Below are positions 21,762-58,225 of a stretch of 64,000 nt of DNA, piece by piece. The position numbers were made by a program, and so were the translations under genes. The notes under the pieces are model-generated. The model was not told where the DNA came from and did no database searches. It saw only the letters and a program-made list of their open reading frames with translations. Source of the stretch: Octopus vulgaris. Its lineage: Eukaryota. The stretch spans positions 51,708,001 through 51,772,000 of the forward strand of contig OX597827.1 of NCBI GenBank assembly GCA_951406725.2, given 5' to 3'. Position 1 is the stretch's first letter, and each line of letters begins with the position of its first letter.

Positions 21762-22179
21762 TTTACTGATGAGGTCTAATAAATTTTAACTGGAGAATGG
21801 GTTACATCCTTGGTCTCTGTAGACTAAGTCTGAAACAATAGATTAGAATCTTGCTGATATACTTGTATCTGATGCTTGATAGATACAGAACGTTGGATCA
21901 AACTTACTGGCAAGGGCTGTATGAGTGCTCAGCTATTGAGTATAGATGTCAGGAGAGACTCAGAACTATACATATGCATTGTATTTTTTACATAGTTATT
22001 AATAAATAGCAAATATGACTAAATGCCTGATCACAACTAAAGGCAGAAGGAAATCTATCTGCAAGGATCTGGTATAATAGATGTTGATGTAAATGAAAAT
22101 ATGGTGATAATAACAAAAATAATGGTAATGTGCTAATGAAGATCATGTTGATAAGGATTATTACTCTTGTTCATTTCAG

Positions 22180-22255
22180 TTATCCCTCTTGGAGTTATTT
22201 CCTCAGGAAAGTGGTACAATAAATCCTGAAGAGCAAACATTGCCTGTATTGCCAG
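22180..22255 (+). CDS. SH3PXD2A: SH3PXD2-like PX exon (equivalent to exon 3)
   Basis: tttcag|TTA...CCAG|gtaaag; 76 nt, phase 0/1. Translates LSLLELFPQESGTINPEEQTLPVLP(G), the PX polyproline-loop region. Confidence 0.92.
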
Positions 22256-22701
22256 GTAAAGTATGTTACAATGTCAAGTAGATCAAGCATTTGATTAATG
22301 TTTTTTGATTTGAGGTTTTTTTTTTATTGTAGTATAATTTTGACCAAGAAATAACTATTTTTATCTTCATCAAAACCATACTAATTTGAAGCGGGTTATA
22401 ATCAATTAAAGTAATGCTCTTTTAACTAAAAACACACTTTGTTGACTCTACTTAGCAAACGCTTTTTAATCATAATATTAATAATATTAATAATATTGGC
22501 ACCAGGCTTGAAATTTTAGGGAGGGAGATAGTTGTTTATATTAACTCAAGTGCTTCACAAGTAGTCCTAGTAGTACTTTATCTTTATCAAATCTGAAAGG
22601 ATGAAAAGCAAAGCTAACTTCAGTGGGATTTGAACTCAGAATGTAAAGAGTTGGAAGAAATGCTACTGATGCTGCTGTTGCTGTTGCTGCTGCTGCTAAT
22701 G

Positions 22702-24101: not shown

Positions 24102-25269
24102 CAAGTCTACTGTCTGCCATATGTGCTATTGCCATCAGGTTTATATTGGTTTATTATATTGCTGTAATAAACTAATATAAGGCCATTACTGTAAGAAATA
24201 TTGATTTCAAATTTTGGCATAATTGGGGGAGTGGGATTAAGTCAACTACATCAATCCCAGTATTCAGCTCGTACTTATTTTATCAACCCCAAAAGGATGC
24301 AAAGCAAAGTCAACCTCAGTAGAATTTGAACTCAGAAGTATGAAGACAGATGAAATGCCAATAAGCATTTTGTCTGGTGTACTAATGGTTTTGTCAGCTC
24401 ACTGCCTTATTAGTGTAAGAAATATTTAAAAAAAAAAACTCATCACACAAGTATTTCTTTTTTGCTACTGAGTCAAATTATCTTTCACCAACACAGATGT
24501 ATCTGCTTGGCTCACTTGGCTATAAGTGATATCATTGGATAGAATGGTTCACAACTATATACAACTGCTGTACTGAAAAGTCAATTGAGGGTTTTTTTAA
24601 AATTAAATTACAATACTGATTTTGGTGTCCCTCTTCTTTAGTTGAGCCCTAACAACATAGTTATATTTTCAATTTTATCATCAATACTTGAGAGCGAACT
24701 TTAAAATGACTGTAAGGGCCATAATGTTTGTCTTCTTACATAGGGTAGACCAGTTTGTAGTAAATGTCTGTATTCATCTCAATCATATGAAACCTCATTT
24801 AACTACTTTGTGTCAATTTTCTCAGGCTTCTACTACTTTCCATAGATTGTTTTTCAAACATCAGGCATCAGCTAGTCACATTCCCTTTCATGGGCTCCCA
24901 TGGTTCTCATGAATTGTGTTTGCCTCCTGTTTATGTGGTATTACACAGATGAGATACAGTCTTCCTCTGGACTGGCTGTTGGTGCCTGTATGGTGTCTGT
25001 TTTGGGAAATGATCATCATTACCATCAGCATCCCCATAATGATCCTCAACATCATTATTAAAGGAAGGATCAATAGCAAGGACATTGTCAATTTTCATGT
25101 TAATATTTTCATTATCATCATCATCATCATTATCATTGTCATCGTCGTTATTGCTCATTTCATTATTGACAGAATCTTTTCGACTACTATTACCATCATC
25201 GTTATTGTTGCTATATTATTCAGACAAATATTGAATCTATTCTTTACACATTTTGTTTTCTTTTTCCAG

Positions 25270-25346
25270 GAAAAATATTCTTTGGCCGCAGCCATGTCAG
25301 GGATGTTGCCCTCAAAAGACTTACCCCATTAGATAATTATTGTAAG
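25270..25346 (+). CDS. SH3PXD2A: SH3PXD2-like PX exon (equivalent to exon 4)
   Basis: ttccag|GA...TGTAAG|gtagat; 77 nt, phase 1/0. Translates [26 protein letters not shown], compared with Tks5 [26 protein letters not shown]. Confidence 0.94.
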
Positions 25347-25642: not shown

Positions 25643-25737
25643 CTGCTCACGAAACTTGAACCCAAAATTTCACAGTGCCATGCAGTTCTAACATTTTTCC
25701 AGTCATCAGCAGAAGATATCGCTGCAGTGACACAAAC
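25643..25737 (+). CDS. SH3PXD2A: SH3PXD2-like last PX exon (equivalent to exon 5)
   Basis: ccacag|CTG...CAAAC|gttagt; 95 nt, phase 0/2. Translates LLTKLEPKISQCHAVLTFFQSSAEDIAAVTQ(T). The 3' donor is inferred from phase compatibility with 51023. Confidence 0.85.
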
Positions 25738-29491: not shown

Positions 29492-29881
29492 ATATGAAAC
29501 CCTTTAGCATTCAGATTTCTCTGTCAAATGTAATACTTATTCACATTGATATGAGTTAGTCATGCATTATCTTGTGGCTTTGAAATTTTAATGACCCGAG
29601 TGTTTATTTTTAGGATAATATTGTAGGATAAGTGTTACAGGTTGGCTATGACTGGTTTAAATGCCGAAAGACCTTAGGAGAAAAGTATTAAATATTTTTA
29701 TGATAGCTTTTGTGTTTCTTTCTCCTTTTCCTCATTTATTTGCACAATATAATGTTGGCAGTCTTAGCCATTTTCTTACTGCACATGATTCCCTTTATTA
29801 TGTTGACAAAGCTTCTCACTTTCTCTAGTATTACTCCTCTATTGAGAAAGATGAGCTGGAAAAGTTTAATGCATTTTTCCA
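29492..29881 (+). repeat. About 400-bp direct duplicate of 30878-31281
   Basis: Colinear from atatgaaaccct to tttttcc; both give the near-identical MCFFLLFLIYLHNIML pseudo-ORF. Confidence 0.88.
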
Positions 29882-30711: not shown

Positions 30712-31963
30712 CCCCTTAATGGATTATCCTGAGTTTAGTTGTGCATCGCAAATGTATCTTTTTAGAACCAGACGAGTATACTCGGTCAAAATTAACTTTT
30801 AATTTTAGCACTCAAATTAATTTATTTGTTTTGTGACATTTCATTTTTGAGCAATCATGAATTTACTCACATTGTCATATGAAACCCTCTAGCATTCAGA
30901 TTTCTCTGTCAAATGTAATACTTATTCACATTAATATGAGTTAGTCATGCATTATCTTGTAGCTTTGAATTTTCTATGACATGAGTGTTTATTTTTAGGA
31001 TAATATTATAGGATAAGTGTTAGAGGTTGGATATGACTGGTTTAAATGCTGAAGATTTTAGGAGAAAAGTATTAAATATTTTTTAGTATGAATATTTTTA
31101 TGAAAGCTTTTGTGTTTCTTTCTCCTTTTCCTCATTTATTTGCACAATATAATGTTGGCAGTCTTAGCCATTTTCTTACTGCACATGATTCCCTTTATTC
31201 TGTTGACAAAGCTACTCACTTTCTCTAATATTGCTCCTTTATTGAGAAAGATGAACTGGAAAAGTTTAATGTATTTTTCCGAAGAATTTATGCTTCTGAG
31301 TTTTGAACTTTTACTTCAGTGTATTCAGGAGGAGGTTGATGTCATTTTAGAACTGTCTCGTTTTGATTCTCTATTATTTATACAAATAAGAGAATCATTT
31401 ATGCATTTTTTTCTCAAAATGGATGAAGATTTAGATATATTCAGTGATCACGAAAGGGATTTTTCATTTCACGATCTGGAAAGCTCTGGGGACAATTTAG
31501 AAACGTGTAGTTCAGACTCTGAATATTTTTCAGAAGATGACAAAGAAGATAATCAGATTGATGCACATGCATGGCACGAATCAATTGCTTGTCCGATTCA
31601 AAGAGAAAGCAGATACATGTGTGATGTCTGCAAGATAACTTTGTGTGTAACTCCTTGTTTTAAAAATTATCATTCTAAATAAACTGTCTATCTCATTTAA
31701 AAACAATTTTCCTTTGATTTAAAGGCAATACGTTTTATAAAAAATTGAAGATAGCTAAGTTATATGTATTTTTTCAATGTTCGAGTTAACTCATTTAAAT
31801 CCAAATGAGTAAAAGTACATTTTAATTTCTATAATAAAAAATAATGGAAACAAGATAAAAAACGTTGTTTTGTAATTAACACAGTGTATATAATTAAAAA
31901 AGAAAATTAAAAAATATGCTCTGAAATGAAATGCCATGTCAAAATAATTGATCCATTAAGGGG
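30712..31963 (+). mobile_element. Internally deleted piggyBac element
   Basis: TTAA TSDs (30708-30711, 31964-31967), TIR CCCCTTAATGGAT/ATCCATTAAGGGG, an acidic N-terminus and the C-terminal Cys-rich motif RESRYMCDVCKITLCVTPCFKNYH. Confidence 0.9.
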
Positions 31964-34660
31964 TTAAAGCCACAACGGAGGCTGTATGACTATAGTGAGG
32001 GAATAATGGTGTAGTAGTAGTTGTAATGTAGTATTTAGGTTGCAATAATGATTATAGTGGCAACAACACTGGTAGTCACAGTCATCAGTAGAATGGGGAT
32101 TGTTATTGCTTAAAATTCCGTGCTGGTGCAGATCTTATAAAGCCGTGTCAGTCATTACTGCCAAGTTCAGTCTAAATATGCATGCACATATACACATACA
32201 AAGTAACACTTGATCTCGTTCACTCTCACTCCCTCTATGTCTCTCCCCTCACTGTCCAACACATCATGAGGGATTAGTAGTAGTTAGAAATTTTTGTGTT
32301 TTTTTATATACACACATATATATGCACACATACAAACATGCATATACTCATACATAACACACACACTAAAAGAAATTAAAGTGAGAGTGATGTATACCTT
32401 AATGATTATTATTTTGGCACTTTGATATACAAAATAGATTAACAGAAATTGCCACGTTTATGTCATTATACACCCTCACTCATAAATACATCAATTATAT
32501 ACCTAACTACCTTTCTTTCATCGAAAGCTGCAGATAGGTTTTCATTTATTTACCTATATTTCACAATGTGATGCTACCTGTTAAAACACTGCAATTTGTT
32601 GAGGATTTTAGCTGAAAAGTGATATTAACTTTTGATTTTTGTCATCATTATCATCATTATTACTATTTATTGCAAAACTAACAATTTCAGTAAAAATTAC
32701 ATGTATGAAAATGCGACAGATGTTTTTTCCTTGATAGTTACCAATGATGGAAAAAATTGCCATTTGGTTTTGCATTGAGGATACTGCTTACATCTTCAAT
32801 TAACTTTTTAGAAAGAAGACCATATCTGTCAAAAGTTTTGATAAAAATTTGTATCATGTAAAAATCTCAAACAGAAGTCTATTTTGTTTCATAAAAATGC
32901 ATGTAACAGACTCAAAAACATCTGAGATATGTTTGGGTTGAACCTATTTTCTCTGCCCTTAGAATCTACCAGCTGAATCTCTGACCAGGATTACTGAATC
33001 ATCTCTTATCAAATTGGTTTATTGTTGCACAGGAATTTTATTAGTTTTTACTAATAGTTAACTCTGTTATCTTTTAATGTATTTTATTGTATGGAACTGC
33101 CTCTACATATATTCAACCAGTCAATCACAGTTATATTCAGCCAGTCATACATAATCTGCCTTACACACATTGATATATTCCAATTTGACTTCACTAAATT
33201 ATCACTACTCTCCAGTTAATGGGGATTTTTTAAAATGCTCTGAGTATAAGTCCATTTTATTAGACTAACTTAAAGAAAAATACATAGCATGCACACACTC
33301 ATTGAGTTACACACAGGCATATAGACTCATTAACATTAATGTTCTTACACATTTGCACATAGTTTTGTATATGGGTATTACCACACACTTTTATACACTA
33401 ATTTTTTTTCTATACAAATGCAAACAAATAAACACATGCATCTAATTACAAGCTTCTTATTAGAAACTTTCAGTTATAAATGCAAGCACAAATATAATAA
33501 AACTATCTTAGTCAAAAATGAGATACCATTCAGATACAGGTGGTAAATAAAACCATATTAGTCCCTGTTCACACCTGGATAATCAATATATTTAAGTTTT
33601 TGTCCACCCTTTTTTTGCTTTCAAAGTACTTAAGCTTTAATCTCATTAAACCTTCTGAACATCATCACCAACAACATTTTCACTGATATTAATGCCACTT
33701 TCTCAAATATCAACATCATCATGAATAGCACCACAAACACTGTCACTCTCCAAACTACTTCAGTCAATACCAACATTAATAGTGTCTCTACATAAACATT
33801 AAACCCCAACACCCACATCAACTTTGAATTTGTGAAGAGGGATGTGGAGATAAAAATTATACTCACATTCCAAATTCACATCACTGGTATTACAACTTTT
33901 ATGTTTACTTTGTGGTAATATCCAGTGTTTCAGATTAAACACATCCATACCTCCACTGTTAGTAGATGGGGTGCTTAAATTCTTTGAATTAAGTAGGTTT
34001 CAATGAATTGGAACAAGACAGAAAGAAATAAGTATTTAGAAAAAGAAAGCAAAAAGAGAATTGACTTATAGATTATAACATTTTATTTTAAATAATCAAG
34101 AATCGAATCTCAGTTTGATCTGATTATTATATGGCTGTTCATATTTCACTGTGAGATTTTCTATTTCAATTATATTGCTATATTTACTGAATGATATTTA
34201 GATCTCTACATGGTCGTCTCACACACATTCATGTGCATGGTTATACAAAAACCTTGACAAATATGTATTTAGATTTAACTAATTCTTGAAAATATTTATT
34301 TACCTGAACAGATGCAGATACCTCTATATAAACAACTGTAAACGTGCATGCACATACACACATAGCATATATCTGTAAATAAATGCTCGCATATATATGC
34401 ATATGCAAACATATATCTTCAGATATTCACATGCACCAGTTTACTTATAGATACTTCATTAAATTAGTTTATATGTATGAATAGTATGTCTGAATGTAGC
34501 TATCTATCTATATTTTTTTATATATATATATACATGTATAAATATCTAAATGTATCTTCCAATGTAATTACATGTGTTAATATACCATTTTTGAAAATGT
34601 GCATGTAATTAGTTATATGATACAAAGTCCACTTTCTCTCCAAATAATATATTTTAAAAA

Positions 34661-35172
34661 ATGACTCGGTGTCGCAAAATCAAAGTTGACCGTAGGTCAC
34701 TCTCAAGAGTAAAGCGGAGACGTTTTCTTCTTTATACTCTTAAGAAAATTCAAGAATGTTGTAACACAATGCCACATCCATTTAAAACCGAATACACTCT
34801 TAAGAAAACATTGTTAAATATTTTTGCTCACAAAACCAGGCCAGTACCAAGGTACTTCAGGCACAAGAATGCAGCATACAGCATTTACTGGCTTGCAAAA
34901 AAGACTCATATGATTAGTATGAAATGTATTAACCATTTAGAGCAAACCATACTTGCTCAGAAACTTATGTCATCGATAGCCTTTGCTCAATATCAAGCTT
35001 GCAATCGCACTGCTAAAATATATTGCAAAATTCAGCAGAAAATTCGTAATCAAAAGTTAGTTTGCTTCATCTATCATTGTCATTCATTTGAATGGAAAGC
35101 AACTCCATCAACAAGGAAAGGCTGTTACCATTTTACACCAGAGGAATTTTGTTCTCATGATTCTATACCAAG
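34661..35172 (+). CDS. Candidate alternative first coding exon of the SH3PXD2-like gene (170 codons, basic and Cys/His-rich)
   Basis: aaaaATG start, no stops in about 65% AT DNA, and ends CCAAG|gtatgt. This phase-2 donor is compatible with the acceptor at 51023. No family similarity recognised. Confidence 0.5.
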
Positions 35173-35689
35173 GTATGTATATTGGTGAATTGGATTTGTA
35201 AAGTTCGAAGGATTTTTGTATATTCTGCATTAGAACTTGATTTTTTCAAAATCTTGAAATATGTGCATATCTGTTATGAGTATTTCTTCTGCTTTGTGCT
35301 GTTACAGTAACACCCAAAGCGTTCAGTACAGGAGTGTAACATTTGTGATTATGCAGTCAACTACATTATTTTGCTAGTCCTGATACCTGTGTTCACCATT
35401 CACTGTGTCCTTTCTCTACCTCCCTCTTTTGTACACTTGCAAACTTACATGCCCACTCACCTTATCCAGTCCTCTGAACTATTTCACTTGTGTACCCCTC
35501 CCAACACATCTTTATCTTCTTTCACTTTCCTCTCCTCTCTTTCCCCTCTCTCTCTTTTTCTAACTGGAGTAGCCATTTTCCCCTCCAGTGCAAGACACCT
35601 GTTTCTGTTCCTCTATTCATACTCTAACCACTCATCACCTGGTACAAAGCCATCTCTCTCAATACCACTATATATATATATATCTTTCC

Positions 35690-35830
35690 TTCTCCTATGT
35701 TTCCGATGAAGAGCTCCGCTCGAAATGTTAAACCCTCCTTCTTTCCTTCTTTCCTGAGCGTCCAATAATACTATATTTGTTCCACATCCTCGCGTTGTTG
35801 TGTTTTTTTGTGCTTTCTTGTTTGGATTAA
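35690..35830 (+). mobile_element. Penelope pseudo-LTR-like repeat with degenerate minimal hammerhead motif
   Basis: gttt CCGATGA a gagc tcc gctc GAAA tg TT aaac at 35699-35733. Confidence 0.5.
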
Positions 35831-36051
35831 CTATATATATATATACTCATATTACTCATTGATGTACATTGTTTTGTTCTATACTATTATGTTTGACCTT
35901 AATGTTCATATGTAGTGTTTTAATAAATTACGTGATTGGGTATTATCTGGTAGTTGATTATTGATTAAGGTGTATTTCTCCATTTTCCTATTTTGTATTA
36001 TATATATATATGTATTATGTGTGTATACATATGTATATATGTTTGTATATA

Positions 36052-36095
<44 letters not shown>

Positions 36096-36169
36096 TATAT
36101 CTCCAACCCCCCACACACACACACATATTCCTCATCCCCTCCCTCCCAGCCTTCCACCCCCTCCTACTT

Positions 36170-36540
36170 CTGTCCCATCCAACCGTCTCCACTTCATTCC
36201 TCCAAATCTTCCCCTCTCTGAGACAGACCACTCCCTCTTCAGTAGGGTCTGCGCTTCATCCCCCACAATCCATCCAGCAGCAAATTTCAGACTTGTGCCG
36301 ATAACCACAGCTTTGTGCACCATGTTAGGTTGTGTGCGCTTTTCTGCGGCACTCCACCTGCATCTAATGAGGAAGACTGTTTCACCATCCCAGTGGACGC
36401 CAGCTCCTGGCCAGTTCCAAGCAGTCAATCTTTTTGTGAATGCCTACCAGCACGCTGTGGACCAGTTTGATTATTCTAGGCATCCCCAACATCTAAACAT
36501 CTCACCAGCTGAACTCTTGGCCCTTCAATGTCTACCAATG
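36170..36540 (+). mobile_element. Penelope-like element ORF N-terminal fragment
   Basis: LSETDHSLFSR/GLRFIP (frameshift)...SQWTPAPG...NISPAELLALQCL, the pattern that precedes the RT domain in PLEs. Confidence 0.6.
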
Positions 36541-36794
36541 TCATATCTACCAAGCCTTAAGTGCCCACAGAATACTCTTCATGTTGCAGGTATGGATTTG
36601 TTGTTCTTCATGTCTCCACAATGAAAGCATGATGCTTGCCCGTCCAATATATATATTGGCAACTGAAAGTAAAATGAAGCAAAATGTTACAAGCTGCATC
36701 TATTGAAATGAAATGGCATTATAGTTTAAACACGTTTTTTGTTCTTTATTTTACTTTTATCAAACCTACAATTGTGTCATCATTTTGCCACAGC

Positions 36795-36952
36795 CATGGC
36801 TGTGTGGTAAGTAGCTTGCTAACCAACCACATGGTTCTGGGTTCAGTCCCACTGCGTGGCATCTGGGGCAAGTGTCTTCTGCTATAGCCCTGGGCCAACC
36901 AATGCCTTGTGAGTGGATTTGGTAGACAGAAACTGAAATGCTTGGGGGACAA

Positions 36953-37000
<48 letters not shown>

Positions 37001-37190
37001 TTGTCCCCCAAGCATTTCTTGACAACTGATGGTGGTGTGTTTACATCCCCATCACTTAGCGGTTCGGCAAAAGAGACCGATAGAATAAGTACTGGGCTTA
37101 CAAAGAATAAGTCGCGGAGTCGATTTGCTCGACTAGAGGCAGTGCTCCAGCATGGCCACAGTCAAATGACTGAAACAACTAAAAGAGTAA
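36795..37190 (+). mobile_element. SINE family A with internal local inversion
   Basis: Matches 14039-14460. The segment aaatgcttgggggacaaacacacacatac...gtatgtgtgtgtttgtcccccaagcattt (about 36936-37017) is a perfect palindrome. Confidence 0.85.
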
Positions 37191-37587
37191 TCTTTATATA
37201 TAAAAGTAAGGTTGTGTGTCTGTCTCCTATGATTTAGATTCCTAACTACTCCCACATTTTGCGGTGCAGTTTAACCAAAACCGGGTATCTTATAGTCGTG
37301 ATTCATATCGAGCCCTTCTGGGTATTAGCATGCGTCTACGATGAGTCTACGAATTAAAAAAAATTTACCATAATTTTTTTCCATTTTAATGCATTTTTTC
37401 GCTATTATATAAGGGAAGTAACTCTCTAAAAATGTCTACGATGAGTCAACGATTTAAAAAAAAATTTACCATAATTTTTTTTCCATTTTTAATGCATTTT
37501 TTTGCTATTTTTTGGCTATAACTCTCTAAAAATGCTTATATAGTTATTTCCCTTACAAACCCGAGCAACGCCGGGTGATACTGCTAG
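37191..37587 (+). mobile_element. Non-autonomous Helitron
   Basis: a|TC start, CTAG|t end, GC hairpin cccgagcaacgccggg about 8 nt before the end, no TSD, and an internal tandem repeat of about 100 bp. Confidence 0.85.
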
Positions 37588-37847
37588 TATATATATATAA
37601 GCTTGTTGCTCTAAGCAGCAACCTTTTCCAACCACTGCTTTTTTCTGATTGTCCTGAAGAAGGGGTCTCCACTCCAAAATATAGAAATACAAAGTAAAAC
37701 TGCAACTTTGTTCTGTTTTGTTTTCCTTTGGTAGTCTACTTTTTACTATCTCAGATTGTTCCAGCTTTACACAACTACATTCTTAAAGCTTTTGTACCTG
37801 TATAGGTAGAAACTTGCTAGCCAATACTTCCCTTTATATATGTGTAT

Positions 37848-38704
37848 ATGTTGGGCCTCATGGAGGTGATGACAAATGAAAGAGACCTTTGGAGATATGC
37901 TGTGCTTGAAAAGACCCGACAAGCCAAATGAGACCATAACCATGACCTATGCCAGTGTAGCATAACCAGCCCATTTAAGGGTACCCTTCAATTGTTGGGC
38001 AATAAACTGCTTCAGAAGACCTGTTGAGTCAAGTGAAATCATTGTCATGGCCGAGACCAGTACCGCCTGACTGGGACGTGTACCGGTGGCATGTAAAAAG
38101 CACCCACTACACCTTCAGAGTAGTTGGTACTAGGAAGGGCATCCAGATGTAGAAACCTTGCCAGATCAGATTGGAGCCTGGTACAGCCTTCTGGCTTGCC
38201 AGTCCTCAGTAAAAACAGTCCAACCCATGCCAGCATGGAAAGTGGACATCAAACGATGATGATGATGATGCTGTATAATTGACTGTAGAAATAAAGCTTT
38301 TTTTAAGATTTAAGAAACAAAATTGAAAGAGAACAGACAAAAGCTAGCTATCAAATAAAGAACAGGAGTTAGCAAAAAATAAAAGATAATAGAGTATCAT
38401 ATTACAGACAGAACAAAGTCAATAGCAACAAAGTCATGCAAAGGGAGTGAGCCCAGTGTAGCCATTATATATAAATTAGGGCAGAGAAGGAAGATTAGAA
38501 CATGTGAGTTATCTTGTGAGATACATAAATGAGTCATACTGCCATTCACTACCTAATATCCAATAGGGTCAGACTTATACACATATGCAGAGAAAGACAA
38601 CAAAGTCATGCAAAGGGAGTGAGCCCAGTGTAGCCATTATATATAAATTCTTAAAGCTTTTGTACCTGCATAGGTAGAAACTTGCTAGCCAATACTTCCC
38701 TTTA

Positions 38705-38745
<41 letters not shown>

Positions 38746-39362
38746 TAGGTTAGTTGAAATATGTTTGTCACATATCTCAACTGCTAAAAGGCAAATACAC
38801 TGCAGTTACCATGGAGAAAAAATTCTCTAATGGTAAAAAGGTGTGAAAACACCCCTTTCGTTCAGTGTCACCCTCTCTTGGGAATCTGAGACATCAATGT
38901 TTCAAGTTTGTTGACTTGTCAATCAGACGTACCTGAGAGGGATAACCCTGAATGAACTGACAAAACTTATAGCTTTATATATAATTCAACTAAAACATTG
39001 ACTGATTTGCACTAGTTGTGACAAACATATTTCAACTAACCTAAATCGTGATTACATGTAAGCACTGATTAGCACGTTTACTCAAATATATATGTATATA
39101 TATGGAAAAAAGTCAAGATAGAAAATGCTAAAATAATTTTATAAAAAACATTTCAGTACCGGTTTCAGTCATTGAGACTTTTTTCAACTGTAACAATTAA
39201 ACAATTAAATTTAGAAAAATTAAAAGAAAAGCTTTTTTTAAAAGAATAGTTGTATAGTGTTCAAATACAAGTGGCATTTTCCTTGTTTTTGTCTATCTCT
39301 GTCTCTCTTGTTTACTCTTGTGGGTTCGAGGTTGTTGCGTGTATATATATGTGTGTGTGTGT

Positions 39363-39404
<42 letters not shown>

Positions 39405-40312
39405 TTGTGTGCATGTGTTTTGCACACATGGCATTTCCAGATCTTATTGCTGGTAATTAATACCTACTAAATAAGTGAAATTAATTAATTATTAATTGCA
39501 GACATTAAATAAGGTGGTTACTACATTTCTAGAGTTCATAGTTGTCAGTGAACCATTAACGAGTGGGATAGATTCTGGTTTATTCACATGTCATGTAAAT
39601 TTATGGAAATTTATGAGCTTCTATAATTTATGCCTCTTTCCTTTTGTATTTGTTTTTTTACTCTTCCTTGTCTCAATTTAGATGTAAGGATCCTGCGTAG
39701 AGTAACGTGCAGCAAATCATGTACGCACACAATTTGAACCAAAGTACTATTATGTATAATACAGTTTATTCATTCTGTAACTCTTACATTTACTGAAACA
39801 ATGTACTTACTATAATATAATGATATATATCATTACAGTAACTATTTTTATCTTAGTGGTTGTTTTTATTGGTCTTATCTATATTATTTTATTGATTAAA
39901 TCTTACATATCTTGTTATTGTTTATAATCTCATTTCTTATTCTTTGAATTATTAGTATAATTTTAAATGTAGTGATCTGGCAGAATTGTTAGTATGTTAG
40001 ACACAATGCTTAGCAGCTTTTCTTCTGAATTTATATTTTGAGTTCAGATGCCTTTCGTCCTTTCGGTGTCAATTTAAATAAATACCTATTGAGCACTGGA
40101 TCAAGTTAATCAACTCATCCCACCCCCTACAATTGGCTTTGTACCAAAATTAGAAAGAATTATTAACATAATTATAATAGCTTTGTATTTGCTTTACTGC
40201 TTTTTGTCTTATATTTAGCATGTTGTTGTTGTTGTTCAGTCAAGTAGCCATCTCTCTCCCCCTAAAATTGCTGGCCTTGTGCCAAAATTAGACAGAATTA
40301 ATTGTTATAAAA

Positions 40313-40345
<33 letters not shown>

Positions 40346-40550
40346 TTAATAATAATCCTTTCTACTATAGGCCCAAGGCCTGAAATTTTGGAGGAGGGAG
40401 CCATTCGATTAGATCGACCTCAGTATGCAACTGGTACTTAATTTATCGTCCTCGAAAGGATGAAAGGCAAAGTCGACCTAATAATAATAATAATAATAAT
40501 AATTCTTTTAATTTTTTTTAAATATTTTTTTATTTTTATTTTTATAAAAA

Positions 40551-40589
<39 letters not shown>

Positions 40590-41666
40590 TCTTTTGTTGG
40601 CTACAAGGGCTAATATAAATTATACATAAAAGACAACACAAGACGATACAAAGGGTTCCCACATTCGTGTAAACATTAAATAACAAAAAAAGATGTGTGT
40701 TTGTGATTGACCACCCCCCACTTCTGACAACTGGTGTTGGTTTGTTTACATCCCTGTAACTTAGTGGTGCATCAAAATGGGACTGATAGAATAAGTACGA
40801 GGCTTAAAAAAAGTAGTGGGGTCGATTTCTTCAACTAAATCATTCAAGACAGTGCCCCAACACGACCGTAGTCTAATGACTGAAACAAGTAACAGAATAT
40901 AATAGGAATGTCTTTGTCTCAGTAATTGTTGTCTTTCTCTGCATATGTGTATAAGTCTGACCCTATTGGATATTAGGTAGTGAATGGCAGTATGACTCAT
41001 TTATGTATCTCACAAGATAACTCACATGTTCTAATCTTCCTTCTCTGCCCTAATTTATATATAATGGCTACACTGGGCTCACTCCCTTTGCATGACTTTG
41101 TTCTGTCTGTAATATGATACTCTATTATCTTTTATTTTTTGCTAACTTCTGTTCTTTATTTGATAGCTAGCTTTTGTCTGTTCTCTTTCAATTTTGTTTC
41201 TTAAATCTTAAAAAAAGCTTTATTTCTACAGTCAATTATACAGCATCATCATCATCATCGTTTGATGTCCATTTTCTATGCTGGCATGGGTTGGACGGTT
41301 TTTACTGAGGACTGGCAAGCCAGAAGGCTGTACCAGGCTCCAATCTGATCTGGCAAGGTTTCTACATCTGGATGCCCTTCCTAGTACCAACTACTCTGAA
41401 GGTGTAGTGGGTGCTTTTTACATGCCACCAGCACGCGTCCCAGTCAGGCGGTACTGGTCTCGGCCATGACAATGATTTCACTTGACTCAACAGGTCTTCT
41501 GAAGCAGTTTATTGCCCAACAATTGAAGGGTACCCTTAATTGGGCTGGTTATGCTACACTGGCATAGGTCATGGTTATGGTCTCATTTGGCTTGTCGGGT
41601 CTTTTCAAGCACAGCATATCTCCAAAGGTCTCTTTCGTTTGTCATCACCTCCATGAGGGCCAACAT
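37848..41666. repeat. About 750-bp near-identical inverted duplication
   Basis: Arms 37848-38603 and 40926-41666 include the RTE 3' UTR and about 330 bp of flanking sequence. Confidence 0.92.
38743..39046. mobile_element. MITE-like segment with perfect 30-bp inverted ends
   Basis: atttaggttagttgaaatatgtttgtcaca / tgtgacaaacatatttcaactaacctaaat; no clear TSD. Confidence 0.55.
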
Positions 41667-41985
41667 TTGAAGGTTGTGCTTCACCACATCATCCCAGGTC
41701 TTCCTGGGTCTACCTCTTCTACAGGTTCCCTCGACTACTAGAGTGTGACACTTTTACACACAACTGTCCTCATCTATTCGCAACATATGACCATACCAGC
41801 ACAGTTGTCTCTCAGGGCACTTACACTCTGTTGTGCATGCACACTGACATTACACATCCAGTGGAGCATACTAGCTTCATTTCTTGCAAGCTTACGCATG
41901 TCCTCAGCAGTCACGGCTCATGTTTCACTGCCGTGTAGCATGGCTGTCTGCACACATGCATCATACAGTCTACCTTTCACTCTTT
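41243..41985 (-). mobile_element. 5'-truncated RTE LINE, same family as 3228-4700
   Basis: Reverse complement of 3775-4700 with small deletions; (cat)n tail. Confidence 0.88.
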
Positions 41986-42129
41986 AAGTACAAAGATGCA
42001 GGAAGTAAAAAAGAAAGATTAAGAAGGAAAAGAAAGAAAAAAAGTTTGGGTAAAGCAGCAGAAGATGGAGGAGAGGGTTGATGGGCCACAAATGCTGGAA
42101 CAAATGGTGTGCTCAGCCATGTCCCTGCA

Positions 42130-42700
42130 ATAATGACCGTGATGGCATTGCTGCTGAGAATGGCCAGCAACACTCCCTGTAGTAGCCATCCCACTTCATG
42201 GAGCTCATTTCTCAGATGGGCCACCATTATCCCTATTTTATGGAGGAAATTGGTAGTACAGGATCTGATGGTGACTGGCACAAACTAGTAGTAGCTGGTC
42301 AGGACCTTGTATTTTTCTCCTCTGCATCACAGGTGGTGATACCTGGGTTTGCAGTGAACGTTGCACAGTTGGAATCAGAGAATGTGTCACTGCTCATCAC
42401 ATCCCAGACTAAGTATCTACATCCCTCGAATGGAAAATGGGTGATTCTGTTGGGACACTTACTGTCCCCATGGTCAAGACCTATGGGCTCCAGTTGAGAT
42501 GGAAAGCCAGCCTCGTTGAGGCCCCTTCTAATGTTATCCAGAGTGGTGTGTCAGGGGAATCGGCCTGTGCTAAAGCTGTATGACAATGGATGCAGGCTGA
42601 ATTCTTCTACTATTGTTGCATAACATTTGTGCAGCTCACACATGCAGAGACCAAGGTGTTGGGTCACTCCCATATGAGCGCACTCATCATCTAGAAGGGA
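42130..42700 (-). mobile_element. CRE-like non-LTR retrotransposon RLE-domain fragment
   Basis: Minus frame IRRGLNEAGFPSQLEPIGLDHGDSKCPNRITHFPFEGCRYLVWDVMSSDTF, compared with the LEP.GL.R.DGKRPDG.T..P...G..L.WD.T..DT signature. Confidence 0.7.
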
Positions 42701-43135
42701 ATTGATAGATAAGGAGGGTACCAAATTGAGCCATATGTCACTATTTGGTTGTGAGGCAGAACAGAGGCTGGCAAGATGGTTGCCTTCTGTTTTGATTTTT
42801 ATCTTTTGCTTTTTACACTTAGATTTTTATTTTCACTTCATTTCTATTTTTGTTCTTTTCCTCCTGTACATTTTTTTTTATAATTATATCTTTATTTTAG
42901 TAAATCCTTAAATGTAAGTTTGTTTTATTATTTCTGTCATTGGCTGTATTTATTTTCTTGGGGCTTGCTTCTTTGGTGTATAAGGGTAGTATTTTCAATT
43001 GGTTTTATATTTTGGTATCTCTACCTGATGAAATGGTTTGTTAAAGATTGTTAAAACAATTGTACGGAGAGACTCAAAGTATTTATAACTTCTTCTTTTC
43101 TGCAAATATTTCAATTACACATGAATGAACACACA

Positions 43136-43167
<32 letters not shown>

Positions 43168-43187
43168 TACACATGTGTGTGTGCATC

Positions 43188-43421
43188 TTAGAAAGAAAGA
43201 ATGGAGAAGTAAAACATGTGGTATCACTTTAGAGCATGTAATTTATAATTCAACCATAATTGCAGAGTAATAACTGTTAGAGTAAACAAGGGATAAAGAA
43301 ATCCCTTATTTTTCAATCCATTATTTCTAAATCCCTTATTTACTCTAACAACTCAGAAATTATGTTTTAATTATAGATTACATGTGCTAAAGTGTTTTGC
43401 TTGTTCATTCTTTCTTTCTAA
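43188..43421. repeat. Imperfect hairpin (MITE-like)
   Basis: Nested complementary blocks ttagaaagaaagaatg/cattctttctttctaa, cactttag..catgtaat/attacatg..ctaaagtg and tgttagagtaaa/tttactctaaca. Confidence 0.75.
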
Positions 43422-44028
43422 TATATATATACCTACTCAATGATGAATCACTTATAGTCATTCTATGCTAGGCAGCTACAAAACCACTTTTGTTTTAGTT
43501 GTTGTTCAAATTGGAGTTTTAGTGGTAAATCAACTTCAGCACTTACTGTGCATACTGTTACATTATGTCATTAGATGGAATTATATATATATGTATGTAT
43601 ACACACACATATGCTGTGGATACATGAATACTGTGTGAAATGCAATCAACGTTCTGCAATTAATGTTCTGTTTATCATTTAGGCAGTCATCATAATTGTT
43701 ATAATGTCTTGTTGTTGAGAGAGGCTCTCTTTCTTTCCTGATGAGAAGATTGCATTTCACACCGTTTATTCCTTTGGAATAAAACCATGTTGTCTTTGAA
43801 ACATATGTTGAAAGTGAAAGAATTTTATTAACATCTTCGTTCAACTCCATTTATTTATTTATTTATTTATCTATTTATAACACACAAATTACTGCACATT
43901 AACCCGGAGTTTCTACCTTTGGATAGGTCGCTTCAACCGTGTTTTTGATGAGAATTTTGCTACCCTGGTAACGGTTTATTGAATTTTCCATGTTAACAGT
44001 AAACATAGAATAATTCATTCATCCACTG

Positions 44029-44142
<114 letters not shown>

Positions 44143-44799
44143 ATGTATTTTTTATATTTATATATCATCATCATTATCATTTAATATCGAGTTTGACAGG
44201 ATCTAACAGGTCAGAGGACTGCATCATACTCCAATGTCTGTTTTGCCATGGTTTCTACAGCTTGATGCCCTTCATAATGCTAACCAATTTACAGAGTATA
44301 CTGGGTCCTCTTGTATGTTACTGGCAATAGAGCGGTTGCCAAGTAGCTTGCAAGACAAGATATAGAGTGGTGGGGCTTATACAAGTAATTGAGAGGCAAA
44401 ATGTATGATAGAAAGATAGGAACAGATGTCTTGCTGTAGAGAGGATACGTGGTTACTGGAAAAGGGCAAGAGGGTAAATGTGAGGGGAATAGGAACAGAG
44501 TATTAGGGAAGTTTGCAAGAGTGTGAGGTGAGTGACAGATGATTAGAGGTAGTGAATATAAGGATGTAGGTGGTGCAAACAGGATTGAGTATATAGGTGA
44601 ACAGCAAACAGTATAAGAGGCTTGGTCCCAGTTGGATATCAGTTGGGGGTGAAGGTGAAGGGAATAGGAGTGGGTCAAGGATGAGGGATGATAAGTGGCA
44701 ATTCATACAAAAGAGCAGTATTGTATTCATACAAAATAGATGAGAAATAGGGAGATGATATGATGTGTGTGTATTTAAGTGCCTTTTTATTTATATATA

Positions 44800-45382
44800 T
44801 CATCATCATCCTCGTTTGATGTTCGCTTTCCATGCTAGCATGGGATGGACGATTTGACTGAGGTCTGGTGAACCAGATGGGTGCACCAGACTCCAATCTG
44901 ATCTGGCAGAGTTTCTACAGCTGGATGCCCTTCCTAACACCAACCACTCTGAGAGTGTAGTGGGTGCTTTTACGTGCCACTTGCACGAGGGCCAGTCAGG
45001 CGGTACTGGCAACAGCCAAGCTCAAATGGTGCTTTTTATGTGCCTCCTGCACAGGAGCCAGTAAGGTGACACAGGTAACGATCACACTCGAATGGTGCTT
45101 TTTACATGCCACTGGCATGGAGGCCAGCTTGTTGCTCTGGCAACAATCATGCTCGTATGGTACTCTTAGCACTCCACTAGCATGGATGCCAGTCATCGAA
45201 TTTGATCTCAATTTCGATTTCGATTTCACTTGCCTCAACAGGTCTTCACAAGCAGAGTTTAGTGTCCAATGAAGGAAAGGTATGCATAAGTGGGCTGGTT
45301 CCACCCCTGGCATAGGCCACAAGGTTATGGCCTCACTTGAGCTTGTCGAGTCTTCTCAAGCACAGCATATTTTCAAAGGTCC
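44800..45382 (-). mobile_element. RTE 3' UTR copy
   Basis: Reverse complement of 4170-4700. Confidence 0.85.
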
Positions 45383-45615
45383 CGATATATATATATATAT
45401 ATATACACGTGCGTGTGTGTGTGTGTGTGTGCATGCGTGTGTGTGTGTGTAAAAATTTATACAAAAAGATGGAATATACTACAAACTACAATTGTTTCTG
45501 TGCAGTGGTATCAGCTCATAGTTGCTGAGTTTTCAGCCTCATAATATTACATAAATTATGGAGATGTACTTGCATAGCAAGTGACCTGATCTGAGATCAT
45601 GTGCTGGAATGAAAA

Positions 45616-46103
45616 CAATTGCAGCATGGAAGGTATTTATAAGCCATTTAAGAAACACACAAATACTATTAGATTTACTTCAACATTTAAATTTAATTTG
45701 TCAAAATATTTTCGGTGCTTTGAGACTGTGACCTGTTCACTGACAAAATTCTGTGCTACATCTCTGGGTCTTTTACCCTCTTGCCCTTTTCCAGTTGCAG
45801 TAACCATGTATCCTCTTTACAGCAAGACATCTATTCCTATCTCTCTATCATACTTTTTGCCTCTCAACTTCTTGTATAAACCCCACCACTCTATATCAAA
45901 GAATCTTGTCTTGCAAGCTATTTGGCAACCTCACTAATGCCAGTAACATACAAGAGGACCCAGCACAGAATTTTGTCAGTAAACAGGTCACGGTCTCAAA
46001 GAGACGGAAATACTTTGGCAAATAAAATTTAAATGTTGAAGTGAATCTAACAATTTTTGAGTGTTTCTTAAATGGCTTATAAACACCTTCTACTCTGCAA
46101 TTG
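45616..46103. repeat. About 140-bp inverted repeat enclosing an inverted copy of 44301-44478
   Basis: Arms 45616-45757 and 45962-46103; spacer 45772-45963. Confidence 0.85.
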
Positions 46104-46312
46104 GTTACATAAATTATTTTATAAATAATTATATAAATAAATATGATCCAACAGCAGCTGTATACCAGCACTTTATCAGGTAGGTTACTTTGAAAGCATC
46201 GCTGGATCACATTCAATTTCCCATCTCTTTTCATGCTTTTGCATAATAAGCTTTCTCATTATATAAATAACACAAGTTATAACAATATCACAAAAAGAAA
46301 AGAAAAAAGAAA

Positions 46313-46366
<54 letters not shown>

Positions 46367-47555
46367 TTCTTTATTAGCTACACAGGGCTGAACACAGCCA
46401 GGACAAATTACAAAGTAAAGCTTTTCTTTTGTGGGGAAAAAAAACTGGGGTAGGTTTTCGATCAAAAGGGATCGTAAAAAGGAAAAAAAAAAGAAAAGAA
46501 AAAAAGAAAAAGAAAAGGAAGAAAAGAAAAGAAAAAAGAAATGGCAGTAAAAATAAAAGTACATATATATCTAAATTCCAAAGCAAATACACCAAAATCC
46601 ATTAATGGAAGCAAAAAACAAAATGAAATGTCTAAATGTAGGTCAAATCATTCTGTCTTTTTATTCTATTTAAGTTTTTCTCTCTCTTTTTATCTTCGGA
46701 TATACACTAGAAATATTATGGTCATTACTCTCCCAGCAAGATATCCATTTACCTGTCAGTCCACTCATAAAACTTAATTTCATTTACCCTGTTATCAAAA
46801 TCATTAAGATTCTTATCACACTTGAATAGATTTATTTGCCTTTACCCATGTATACATTACAAATGTTCATTTGCTTGGTATATACATAGAAATATCTATA
46901 TCTAAATACACATATACATACACACACTGATATGGACATATATGTATATACACAGGCAACCATCTATTTTCTTTGTGGTAGCACACCTGTTTCTGTCTTC
47001 ATTCTGGATCTTTCTCTCACCAGCCAGGTAACCTTGTACTTCCTCTACAGCAAGACACCTGTATTTGTTGCACTTTAACCTTTTCATCATTACCTCTTCC
47101 AATGCCTCCTCCTCTCTCAAAAGTTTTTTTATGTCTTGCAAGTACTTGGTGACCCTGTCAGTGCTGGTGCCACTTAAAAGCACCCACTTCACTGTAAAGT
47201 GGTTGGCATTCAGAAGGGCATCCAGCTGTAAAAACCTTGCCAAAACTGACCTCGCCTGTACTTGTACTATATAATAAGCAATAAGTCCTCTCTGGTGAAT
47301 GGTTGTTTTTTAGGAAAGGCATCCAGCTGTAAAAATCCTGCCAAAACAGTCACAGACATCTAATTCATGCTTCAGCCTGGCCAGCTCTTGTGGTACTGTC
47401 CCACCCATGCTAGCATGGAAGATGGACGTTAAATGATGATGATGATGATGATATACAGTTATCAATTTGTGTTGCAGGATCCTTGACATGAAATTGTGTG
47501 TTGAAACCAATATTGTAGAATTTTGGGATGGTCATTTTTTTTTCATTTTTTGGGG

Positions 47556-48290
47556 TGCCAAATAAACACAAGCACTATATATTTTTTTTCACTCATTTAT
47601 TACTGTCCTTATTTTATTATTTTAACTCATATCCATTGTCCTGAAATCTTTTATCACACATCTGTGACCTCTTCAGTGACACTTTTCATTTACATATATG
47701 TTCTTGCTCCACTTACTCGATTCTGTTCTTCTAAAGTGTGTATCCGTATGTGCTCATGCATTTGTGTCATTGTTTGTGTGTCTGTGTGTGTGCGCGCATA
47801 TGTATGTGTATGTGCATGCATGCTTCTGTGTGTGTGTATGTTATAGTTTTTAGCAGCAGTGTAGCCTTCCCCTCAGTAGCTCCATCCACTTACCCCATTG
47901 TACTATTGCTGTCCTAAGACCCGAAAATATGGTACAGTTCCTGTATTCCTCTGTGTATGTGTGTTTGCCCACGGTGTTGCCATCGTGGTAGTTGTAGTTG
48001 TTGTTATTGCCATCGTTATCACCACTGCTGCTACTGTCGTTAACATGATTAACGACAGCATACACACACACACACAAGGACACAGACACATGCACACATA
48101 AGGATACACACCTTAAAAGAATAGAATGGAGTAAGTGGAGCAAGAACACACAAAAATGAAAACTGTCGCTGAAGAGGTCACAGATGTGTGATAAAGATTT
48201 CCAGACAATGGACATGAGTTAAAATAATAAAATTAGAACAATAATAAACAAGTGAAAAAAAAAATACATAGTGCATGTATTTATTAGGCA
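47556..48290. repeat. Diverged inverted repeat with arms of about 240 bp
   Basis: For example tttatcacacatctgtgacctcttcag / ctgaagaggtcacagatgtgtgataaa. Arms about 47556-47800 and 48060-48290. Confidence 0.85.
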
Positions 48291-48316
48291 AAAAAAAAAA
48301 CATGATGAAATATAAC

Positions 48317-48357
<41 letters not shown>

Positions 48358-48359
48358 AC

Positions 48360-48450
<91 letters not shown>

Positions 48451-48923
48451 CATTTCTATATATATTTACTTCTACATTTATCTTCAAACCCTACATACAT
48501 ACCTACTCATGCACATGCACATCTGCAAAACCTACATACATACATACATTCATACATACACGCACACACTTATGTACATACACACACATATAAAAGCTAT
48601 TCTTTTCATTTTATATCATTAGGTTAAATCAATATTTTAACTCCTACATATTCTGTATCCTTTTCTAAATTTTTGTATTCATCTAAACATCAGTAATGAC
48701 GTGAAAGTATGTTAACTGCAGTTTCTAGCAAATAACATATGATCATTTATATTGGTACTTTCAAATCATTATAATAATTACATAATACATGTAAACAACA
48801 TGTTATTAAAAATAATCATCTTATTTTAATTATAATTTTGACTCGATAAAATATCAATATCACTTTGAAAATTATCTGTTCTTTCTAAATTCTAGAAATG
48901 AATTTTTCAGTCTATTGTTGTGT

Positions 48924-48990
<67 letters not shown>

Positions 48991-50423
48991 CAATGGGTTT
49001 TTAAATGTTAATTTATTAATGGTTATAGACCAGAGGCTCTCAACCATTTTTTGTCCATGGACCCCTTTGATTACTTTTTCATTCTGATGGAACACACCAT
49101 CATCTTGGCATAGATCAACATTGTTGAGATAGGAATTTTGATCTCTATGTTTTTAATATAAAGAGACTTATACAAGATGGCAGATGTCAGCAGTCATACA
49201 ATTCCATTAATACATTGAACAGTTCATCTGTATTGGAATTTTTTAACCTATGCTGAGCCCTTACTAAATTGAAATGTTTTCTTGCATGCATGAAATGTTT
49301 TCTTGTATGCATGATAAAGTCTAGGTTTATACAACCTATGACAACATGTTTTTGCAAACTCGATCACTTTATCAAGCAGCAATCTCGGTATAGAGGAATA
49401 AAAATCTATAATATCAGTGTAAATCTAGCCTGATACTTATTCTTTAAATGCTTAAACCAATCTTTTACAGTTTTGCTATTATCCCATACTTGTAGCATAG
49501 TATCTCTCTGATTTTGAAATTAATAATATTCCTTAGTATTATTTTTTTTTTGGCTTCTGACCCAGTGTCAGTCTCCCCTGAGTTTAACAATCTACTTTTT
49601 GAACCCACTTTTGTCTTGTTTTTCTCTCATGATTTCTCTTGTTCTGTTGTCCTGATTTGTAACTTTTCGGCCATGTGCCCAGAGCACAAAGATTACATGG
49701 AGACACTAGGCATGTTTTAAATACCTCCAATGAATGAGATTATTAGTAGCAGCACGTAACTATATACTGTATACATTAAGCAATAGATAGATAGATAGAC
49801 AGATAGATAAACAGACAGAGGGGGAGGGAGTGAGGGAGAGTACAAAGTATAAATGAAAGAGAATGATGAGACATATTCATATAAACACTTGAATGAATGT
49901 GCATGTATATATGTATGCATGCATGCATGCATTGAGAAGTTTGTGTGTGTGTTTTACAACTGGTGTGGTTGTTTGCGTTGTCTCTAAACCACGATTTATT
50001 GACCTATGGCAATCATGTCAAGTAGTGAATTATATTACCACATTTTAGAGAAAGTATTGGCAGCCCTTATTTAGTTAGTACCTTATTAGAGCTATTACCT
50101 GGCATGGTGCTACTTTAGGATGATTGTTGATCTAAATTTTGTAGCTTTTATATTTAACGAAAGACAGCATATAAAGGTAAAGATTGCAAAGATTCAGAAA
50201 TAAAGACTAGAACTTGCAGCATTTATCTACACAAGGAAGTATACCCCTTATAATGAGAATGTTGTCTCTGACTTAATTTCTCAAGCATATACCTGTTCAT
50301 CTACTTCCAGACTCATATCCTTAAAGGAATGAATACTACTTAAAATTTTGTGACTAGCTGTAAGAATAGATTATTTTTAGATTAAGTTGAACACCCTAAT
50401 TGTCATTCAAATTATGCAAATAT

Positions 50424-50504
50424 TAGGTACTGTGGCTGTTCATGACTTGGTAGGTACTGTGGCTGTTCATGACTTGGTAGGTACTGTGGCTGTTCATGAC
50501 TTGG
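50424..50504. repeat. Perfect 3 x 27-bp tandem repeat
   Basis: taggtactgtggctgttcatgacttgg repeated three times. Confidence 0.95.
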
Positions 50505-51022
50505 TGCTCTGTTCTGATGCCCAGGTAATCCCCATGGTTCCTATTGTAGTTCAAAATTGATGAAACCTGTCATACCAGATTCAGAAGACAATGGTGACAT
50601 GCTACAAAGTGGAAGATGGAACAGTACCTCTACAAGAACTCAAGGAGATTCAGTTGTGTACCAGACTCTCCCAATTAGTATATGTGGGAATATTTATATA
50701 AAGTTTTGCTTGATACTGCTTAAGTTTACTTTTTTGGTTTTCCATGCTTACTTATAAATGGAAGTGGTCTGGTTGACAGTGCAATGAAGAAAATCTTACA
50801 AGGTGCTATGATATTCTGATCTGTAGATTACATTGGTAAAATGTGAAACTAATCTATAACTGATCAATAATCAATTAAGTTCAATAAATCATTGTAGCAG
50901 CCACCAGGTTTTCACTTTCCTTATAATTACATTGTCCTATCACCAATTTGTACATGCATTTTCAAAGCTTTTTTTCCATTGCTGTTTAAGTATGATGTTC
51001 TGAACCTCTCTTCCATTTCCAG

Positions 51023-51165
51023 CAAAAAGCAAGATCTGAAGACCATATCCACTCCACGATTACTAGAGCAGTATGTTGCAGTTTATGACTTCAACAAGCA
51101 GAACAAAGATGAGATTGATATTAATGCTGGAGACAGCCTAGAAGTCATTGAGAAATGTGAAGATG
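51023..51165 (+). CDS. SH3PXD2A: SH3PXD2-like exon, linker plus N-half of SH3 #1
   Basis: ttccag|C...GATG|gtaaag; 143 nt, phase 2/1. Translates KKQDLKTISTPRLLEQYVAVYDFNKQNKDEIDINAGDSLEVIEKCED(G). Confidence 0.94.
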
Positions 51166-53946: not shown

Positions 53947-54038
53947 ATAGTAGTACCAGCAGCAGCTGTTGGTGTTGTTGTTGTTGTAACTTATGTTTAT
54001 TGTAGTATATGATTCACATGATGATGTTTAACTTGCAG

Positions 54039-54143
54039 GTTGGTGGTTGGTGAACAAAAACTCTGAACAAGGCTATGTTCCTGGAAACTATCTGAAGCGA
54101 GGTGACAGCTTGAAAGATTCCAGGACTCTGGCAGACAACTGTG
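54039..54143 (+). CDS. SH3PXD2A: SH3PXD2-like exon, C-half of SH3 #1
   Basis: ttgcag|GT...TGTG|gtaagg; 105 nt, phase 1/1. Translates GWWLVNKNSEQGYVPGNYLKRGDSLKDSRTLADNC. Confidence 0.94.
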
Positions 54144-54238
54144 GTAAGGCTGTGTAAAGATGTGGAATATGTTTATGTGTGTATTAGTTTGTGCATAAAT
54201 AGGTTTAGGTATGTGTATGTGTATGTGTGTATATATAT

Positions 54239-58060: not shown

Positions 58061-58107
58061 GTTGTTACCATTAAGCTGATACTCAAGTTGATGTACCTCT
58101 ATTGTAG

Positions 58108-58225
58108 GAGAGAAATATGTCTGTATAGAAGCATTTGAACCTGAGGGTCCTGATGACCATTCCTTGAGAGTTGGGGTCATAGTGGAGCTCATCCAGAAGA
58201 ATCTCGATGGATGGTGGTGGGTCAG
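58108..58225 (+). CDS. SH3PXD2A: SH3PXD2-like exon, SH3 #2
   Basis: ttgtag|GA...GTCAG|gtgagt; 118 nt, phase 1/2. Translates GEKYVCIEAFEPEGPDDHSLRVGVIVELIQKNLDGWWWV(S). Confidence 0.94.

Follow-up and report, generated by a model that had tools for sequence, protein, structure and literature searches.

An alternative exon of an octopus Tks4/5-like gene encodes a basic head with a conserved Cys/His motif in place of the PX domain

The window analysed here is a 64,000-nucleotide stretch of Octopus vulgaris DNA (contig OX597827.1). It contains an alternative exon which is almost certainly real, and which is spliced onto the first SH3 exon of a Tks4/5-like gene. The exon is located in the intron separating the PX exons from the SH3 exons, and the resulting isoform begins with a basic head where the canonical isoform has its PX domain. 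The features are given below. The exon ends obtained by tblastn of P0004, a PX-form octopus protein, on the window are approximate except where checked.

~643–747, 22174–22269 and 25260–25346, + strand: earlier PX exons (tblastn of P0004)
25644..25737, + strand: last PX-domain exon of the canonical isoform, with a phase-2 donor
34559..34660, + strand: putative 5′ untranslated part of the alternative exon; RNA-like contigs enter the ATG unbroken
34661..35172, + strand: alternative exon, coding part (170 codons plus 2 nt; basic head, pI 10.1)
34712..34723, + strand: KRRR basic cluster (residues 18–21 of the head)
35051..35161, + strand: conserved Cys/His motif (residues 131–167; 25 of 37 identical with the distant homologue P0017)
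35173..51022, + strand: intron removed in the alternative isoform (15,850 nt, GT–AG; loose contig ends match the 51023 exon)
51023..51165, + strand: shared exon, start of the first SH3 domain (SH3_1, E 2e-6)
~54038–54184, 58107–58223 and 61652–62014, + strand: further SH3-side exons (tblastn of P0004)

Splicing of the alternative exon

The frame of the alternative exon opens at the ATG of 34661 in the context AAAA-ATG, is preceded by an in-frame TAA (34655–34657), and reaches the donor AAG/GTATGT 512 nt past the ATG (GT at 35173, phase 2). The original prediction had named this 170-codon frame, its ATG context and its phase-2 donor, and all of these were recovered by recomputation. The last PX exon (25644–25737) also has a phase-2 donor, and both exons are in frame with the acceptor at 51023. 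The codon at the new junction 35172/51023 is Ser, and the joined frame continues into the SH3 domain. The in-frame join that had been predicted is borne out by this translation and by the spliced contigs described below. If no splicing takes place, the alternative frame stops after 175 codons (35188). According to the local base composition, about 0.001 ATG frames of this length are expected by chance in the 25-kb intron, repeats being ignored in the estimate. Two further ATG frames of similar length are present in the same intron (204 and 176 codons including the stop); judging from position and content, these are a microsatellite frame and a piggyBac-like remnant.

The head contains 34 Lys and Arg, 8 Asp and Glu, 10 Cys and 9 His residues over its 170 full codons, and its net charge is about +26. 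An earlier hand count of the basic and acidic residues, and the KRRR cluster reported with it, agree with these values. Thus, the N-terminus is basic as had been described, whereas its most conserved part, the Cys/His motif, had been overlooked.

Of the 24 sequencing runs listed, 20 contain the exon stretch; no run is recorded as RNA, and 14 of those containing it were guessed to be RNA. Eight of the 20 were examined, of which five are RNA-like and three are probably genomic (the kind is not on record). The junction was seen in three of the five RNA-like runs, from three studies and two organisms, and the spanning of 35172–51023 that had been proposed as a check is found in contigs X2, X8 and X10. 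In contig X2 (organism A, study P1), position 35172 is followed by the opening 30 nt of the exon at 51023, which agree at 30/30 as compared by eye. In X8 (study P3) and X10 (study P4), both from organism C, position 35170 is followed by 2 nt and the start of the homologous exon (26/28). The RNA-like X1 ends exactly on the donor at 35172, and the RNA-like X5 (organism B) passes the donor unspliced to 35264. All three probably genomic runs read through the donor. Since 15,850 nt are skipped at GT–AG and the sequence is single-copy in the genome, the join between 35172 and 51023 is a splice. The contigs cover the 3′ junction of the alternative exon, not a complete transcript. The spliced form lacks the PX domain and is in frame with the SH3 exons, as expected of a PX-less Tks isoform. 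Four same-species runs contain next to none of the exon's words; these word-poor runs are no evidence for tissue restriction.

The host gene and its models

According to the accessible part of PMC2121648, the SH3PXD2 proteins consist of a PX domain, a bis-SH3 and two or three more SH3 domains, with a 2a/2b split in vertebrates. TKS-like genes are widespread among invertebrates, as stated in the accessible part of PMC7663256. The octopus gene shows the SH3PXD2 (Tks4/5-like) arrangement, with an N-terminal PX domain, a bis-SH3 and further SH3 domains. The PX-form records of the gene are P0003, P0004 and P0006, and PF00787 is found (precomputed) on P0006. P0001, which is of the isoform X1 type, has four SH3 stretches, and PX is absent. 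Tks5 has five SH3 domains (PMC7663256, accessible part). The five SH3 domains expected of a Tks5 (SH3PXD2A) orthologue in the strict, one-to-one sense were not found in the octopus gene, which has four SH3 stretches. Because of its four SH3 domains, the gene is better named Tks4/5-like than Tks5.

The isoform had been predicted to be novel. RefSeq already models it in two species under the name 'SH3 and PX domain-containing protein 2A isoform X1', and XP_036364820.1 and XP_052828714.1 are this isoform. The former (O. sinensis, isoform X1, 992 aa) is the sole match among 49 candidates in the search of longer proteins, and its head is identical to the window at 169 of 170 residues. The latter (O. 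bimaculoides, isoform X1, 1003 aa) is identical at 159 of 170. The X1 models of both species begin at the Met of the alternative exon, and X2 is the PX form. Therefore, the PX-less isoform is neither new nor out of the ordinary if taken only as a gene model. No X1-type form was found among the two O. vulgaris members of the cluster or in the single Argonauta record, all of which are PX forms. The O. vulgaris model P0002 (CAI9733015.1) has another C-terminus with the fourth SH3 truncated, which is either an alternative last exon or a model error.

Upstream end of the exon

A predicted intronic promoter located just upstream of about 34560 would very probably make the alternative exon the first coding exon. 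The 5′ ends of the RNA-like contigs are at 34386 (X1), 34559 (X10), 34574 (X8) and 34615 (X2), and the contigs run unbroken into the ATG. No loose 5′ end is present among the matches listed for the RNA-like contigs entering the exon. Between 34300 and the donor, none of the YAG sites qualifies as a pyrimidine-rich acceptor (at least 14 pyrimidines in 20). The contig ends adjoin an AT-rich tract (34487–34546), which is skipped in mapping, and the cover of X10 extends over both flanking introns. Because of this intronic cover, the 5′ contig ends cannot be taken as evidence of a start site. TATA-like words at 34325 and 34537 were rejected as a promoter, being no better than the background of 7.8 such words per kb in this intron. 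Fifteen short upstream ATG frames are present in 34381–34660.

Conservation of the head in octopods

The frame is intact in O. sinensis, O. bimaculoides and P0016 (90% identical to the head), as was to be checked in related octopods, and KRRR is kept in the octopod sequences. Between the X1 models of O. sinensis and O. bimaculoides, 160 of 170 head residues are identical; the corresponding values are 124/132 for PX, 131/140 for SH3a–b, 430/500 for the linker and 167/181 for SH3c–d. Judging from these identities, the head and the PX domain are equally conserved between the two octopus species.

Eighteen differences are listed between X8 and the window, 16 of which lie within the coding frame, 5 of them being synonymous and 11 non-synonymous. 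The ratio pN/pS against X8 is 0.55–0.72 (P 0.20–0.36). Thus, the ratio which the original prediction had suggested examining lies below 1, but the signal of purifying selection is not significant. The amino-acid changes of X8 are those of P0013, so X8 is not an independent line for conservation. Measured against the rate in the upstream intron (X19, 64 in 1472), the non-synonymous deficit gives P 0.06–0.15. The open frame withstands 17 random changes in 45% of trials. In organism C, the frame has no indel in 512 nt, whereas at least 6 events are listed in 1472 nt of upstream intron; the indel shortage gives P 0.02–0.12, taking 6–12 intron events. X20 has one gap somewhere within 34687–35383, its exact place not being fixed. 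All 10 head cysteines are invariant among octopods, the 22 variable positions being too few for significance, and the variable positions do not significantly avoid those shared with P0017 (5/22, P 0.62).

Relatives of the head

Two proteins, P0016 and P0017, pass E 0.001 among 1.84 billion representatives. The overall identity of P0017 to the head is 33% (E 8.8e-10). In residues 131–168, 26 of 38 are identical, against 24 of 130 (about 18%) in the rest of the head, and the Cys/His residues common to both are C135, H139, C140, H141, C155, H157 and C164. P0017 has a Met at the same place, 34 Lys and Arg residues and a pI of 10.0; the strict KRRR is absent, and a looser basic cluster is present. 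The sole significant match of P0017 in this genome is the alternative exon (E 8.7e-13). Its cluster has four members, all of them Logan frames, and an SH3 continuation is absent from all four; P0016–P0020 are all unspliced read-through forms. The likeness of P0017 stops where the octopus exon stops. Shortly past the exon end, R-W-V of P0017 compared with R-Y-V of the octopus read-through would fit a similar donor.

The retention of the motif in P0017 together with the divergence elsewhere indicates, at the level of sequence, that the head is a constrained module, and it matches no known family. What is new here is this distant homologue, which, as judged by alignment, keeps the Cys/His motif. 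No Pfam family was obtained for the window head peptide with E thresholds of 1 and 5, and no Pfam match to known zinc-finger families was found. The best PDB profile match, a response regulator (E 0.012), lies outside the motif and was rejected as chance. Pfam DUF7299 (E 0.13, 4/6 members) was also rejected as chance. An origin of the head from a degraded PX domain was rejected, the head and P0017 being without similarity to the PX-form proteins. An IQ-like word (I-Q-x-x-x-R at 124) is incomplete as an IQ motif, and its register shifts in P0017. In the Protein Atlas, the head has no match at 0.9 or above, and P0017 has no usable match. AlphaFold2 was uninformative both on the head with six sequences (mean pLDDT 37.9) and on the full isoform (pLDDT 28.4, even the SH3 domains being under 50); there is a weak hint of helices at residues 16–128. 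No paper on the octopus PX-less isoform was found in the literature searched, most subscription papers being outside its reach, and the head and its Cys/His motif appear unstudied.

Copy number and neighbouring elements

The DNA of the alternative exon has one match in the 2.8-Gb genome, and the head peptide has one significant match out of 18 candidates scored. As a positive control, a piggyBac-like element 3 kb upstream gave 52 matches in the same genome search. The control indicates that the search, which leaves out very common words, does detect repeats. No relative was confirmed in viral, prokaryote and metagenome contigs (80, 67 and 126 pattern matches scanned). The transposon check proposed earlier thus gave no multicopy match for the exon. 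The exon as a multicopy transposon was rejected on the basis of its single-copy DNA, the absence of likeness to transposon proteins and the visibility of the control element. It may be a copy of an ancient transposable element that was domesticated.

Several other elements were observed in the window. The stretch 31282–31900 (frame 31104–31682, + strand) is a multicopy element with 52 matches, the other copies being at 84–95%. In its frame, a zf-Tnp_2-like finger (E 2e-4, below the cut-off) comes immediately after an acidic stretch, and the whole is likely an internally deleted piggyBac-like element. ATG frames of 155–163 codons in this element reach weak phase-2 GT sites and are putative only. 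The stretches 30900–31280 and ~29515–29880 are the 90% identical copies of a local duplication, which the piggyBac-like element interrupts or borders. At 3364–4216 (+ strand), overlapping frames look like the terminal part of a LINE-type element, and their Cys cluster is PHD-like. At 11652–12922 (+ strand), broken frames with a C-x2-C-x4-H-x4-C knuckle (~12250–12300) resemble ORF1 of a non-LTR element. An unspliced frame over 61616–62050 (+ strand) is also a separate Logan protein (P0005), as is the alternative exon (P0016). These Logan records are read-through calls, and are therefore no evidence for small genes.

Proposed role of the head

We propose that the basic 170-residue head would replace PX as a substitute targeting module, likely produced from an internal promoter and translated from 34661. 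The basic and probably helical residues 16–128 would bind an acidic non-nuclear surface, either an anionic membrane or the cytoskeleton, and would do so independently of the phosphoinositide signal by which PX is recruited. Partner specificity would come from the Cys/His motif, folded into a small knot that is probably held by zinc. The four SH3 domains and the proline-rich linker would then bring actin/dynamin-type partners where the PX form does not reach. The whole mechanism, in which the head is a non-nuclear surface-binding replacement with a zinc-held specificity module, is put forward tentatively, with a chance slightly short of even; the Cys/His motif would be a putative metal-binding one. 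We regard as doubtful the broader reading in which coleoid cephalopods would have built a new folded domain (basic helices and a zinc-held Cys/His knot) from intronic sequence and long kept it as a promoter-switched PX replacement, redirecting a podosome/Nox-organiser scaffold in a specific tissue.

Nucleic acid is often bound by Cys/His motifs. The KRRR cluster fits the import-signal pattern K-(K/R)-x-(K/R), and this fit, together with the net charge of about +26, would suit a nuclear or nucleic-acid-binding head, whose basic cluster would take the scaffold into the nucleus and whose Cys/His knot would attach to DNA or RNA. Such a role is unlikely: the pattern is missing at that position in P0017 and P0019, the zinc-finger families give no match, and the known partners of Tks proteins are active at the cortex (PMC7663256, accessible part). 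It is also improbable that the isoform acts solely through the loss of PX as a cytosolic competitor or buffer, the head being largely passive or used for stability control. The 25 of 37 residues with seven Cys/His that are kept while the rest diverged, and a conservation equal to that of PX between octopods, argue against a passive head, whereas a pN/pS not significantly below 1 and the identity of about 18% of residues 1–130 to P0017 are consistent with it. So are the mammalian PX-less forms, which organise invadopodia poorly, and the proteasome regulation of Tks5beta, according to the accessible parts of PMC4178035 and PMC7663256.

The intronic cover of X10 and X1 and the many short upstream ATG frames would be expected if the exon were an internal or retained piece of PX transcripts (a poison exon), or if a further non-coding exon lay upstream, the ATG form then being minor or unmade. 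We consider this very unlikely, since no loose 5′ end is present among the matches listed for the RNA-like contigs entering the exon, no strong acceptor was found in front of it, and the frame and the Met are conserved. It is hardly credible that the intron harbours a small gene of its own, or what is left of a transposon or virus, which is occasionally spliced to the Tks gene. The unspliced frame does give a 175-residue protein, all of P0016–P0020 are read-through forms, and X5 reads through the donor; against this stand the genome searches, in which the DNA matched once and the protein once significantly (52 matches for the neighbouring transposon), the lack of a confirmed viral, prokaryote or metagenome relative, and the likeness of P0017 ending at the donor.

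Comparison with known systems

Whether invadopodia form in mammals is set by the balance between Tks5 with PX and Tks5 without it, and the short forms act by targeting loss. The accessible parts of PMC4178035 and PMC7663256 describe PX-less Tks5 forms which have their start in an intron and no longer show the membrane localisation that depends on PX. In the accessible part of PMC4178035, Tks5beta starts in intron V, the coding sequence of exon 6 being extended without a break by 29 bp, and Tks5short has its start in intron VII. Thus, the mammalian parallel drawn in the original prediction holds for Tks5beta, whose start lies in the intron behind the PX exons, but not for Tks5short, which starts further on, in intron VII. 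Tks5beta of mouse and human resembles the octopus isoform in lacking PX and retaining the SH3 domains; it starts in the intron that follows the last PX exon, as the octopus isoform probably does. Its head has about 10 unique residues (PMC4178035, same part), whereas the octopus head is encoded by a separate exon 15.9 kb upstream and has 170 residues, among them a conserved motif of its own. Mouse Tks5short is likewise PX-less, with an internal start such as the octopus isoform probably has; it is described as targeting loss in the accessible parts of PMC4178035 and PMC7663256, whereas the octopus isoform would be a domain replacement. The p47phox/NOXO1/SH3PXD2 organiser family has the PX and bis-SH3 core in common with the octopus canonical isoform, and no replacement head like the octopus one was seen in the accessible part of PMC2121648. 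The RefSeq X1 models XP_036364820.1 and XP_052828714.1 have the same exon, start and junction as the window, with no difference in kind. At the same intron position as the mammalian PX loss, the octopus gene has a replacement of 170 residues that includes a conserved motif particular to it. Provided that this motif folds and that P0017 belongs to a Tks gene, the substitute head would provide a small new Cys/His module, and the isoform would be a clean lineage-born domain swap by promoter choice.
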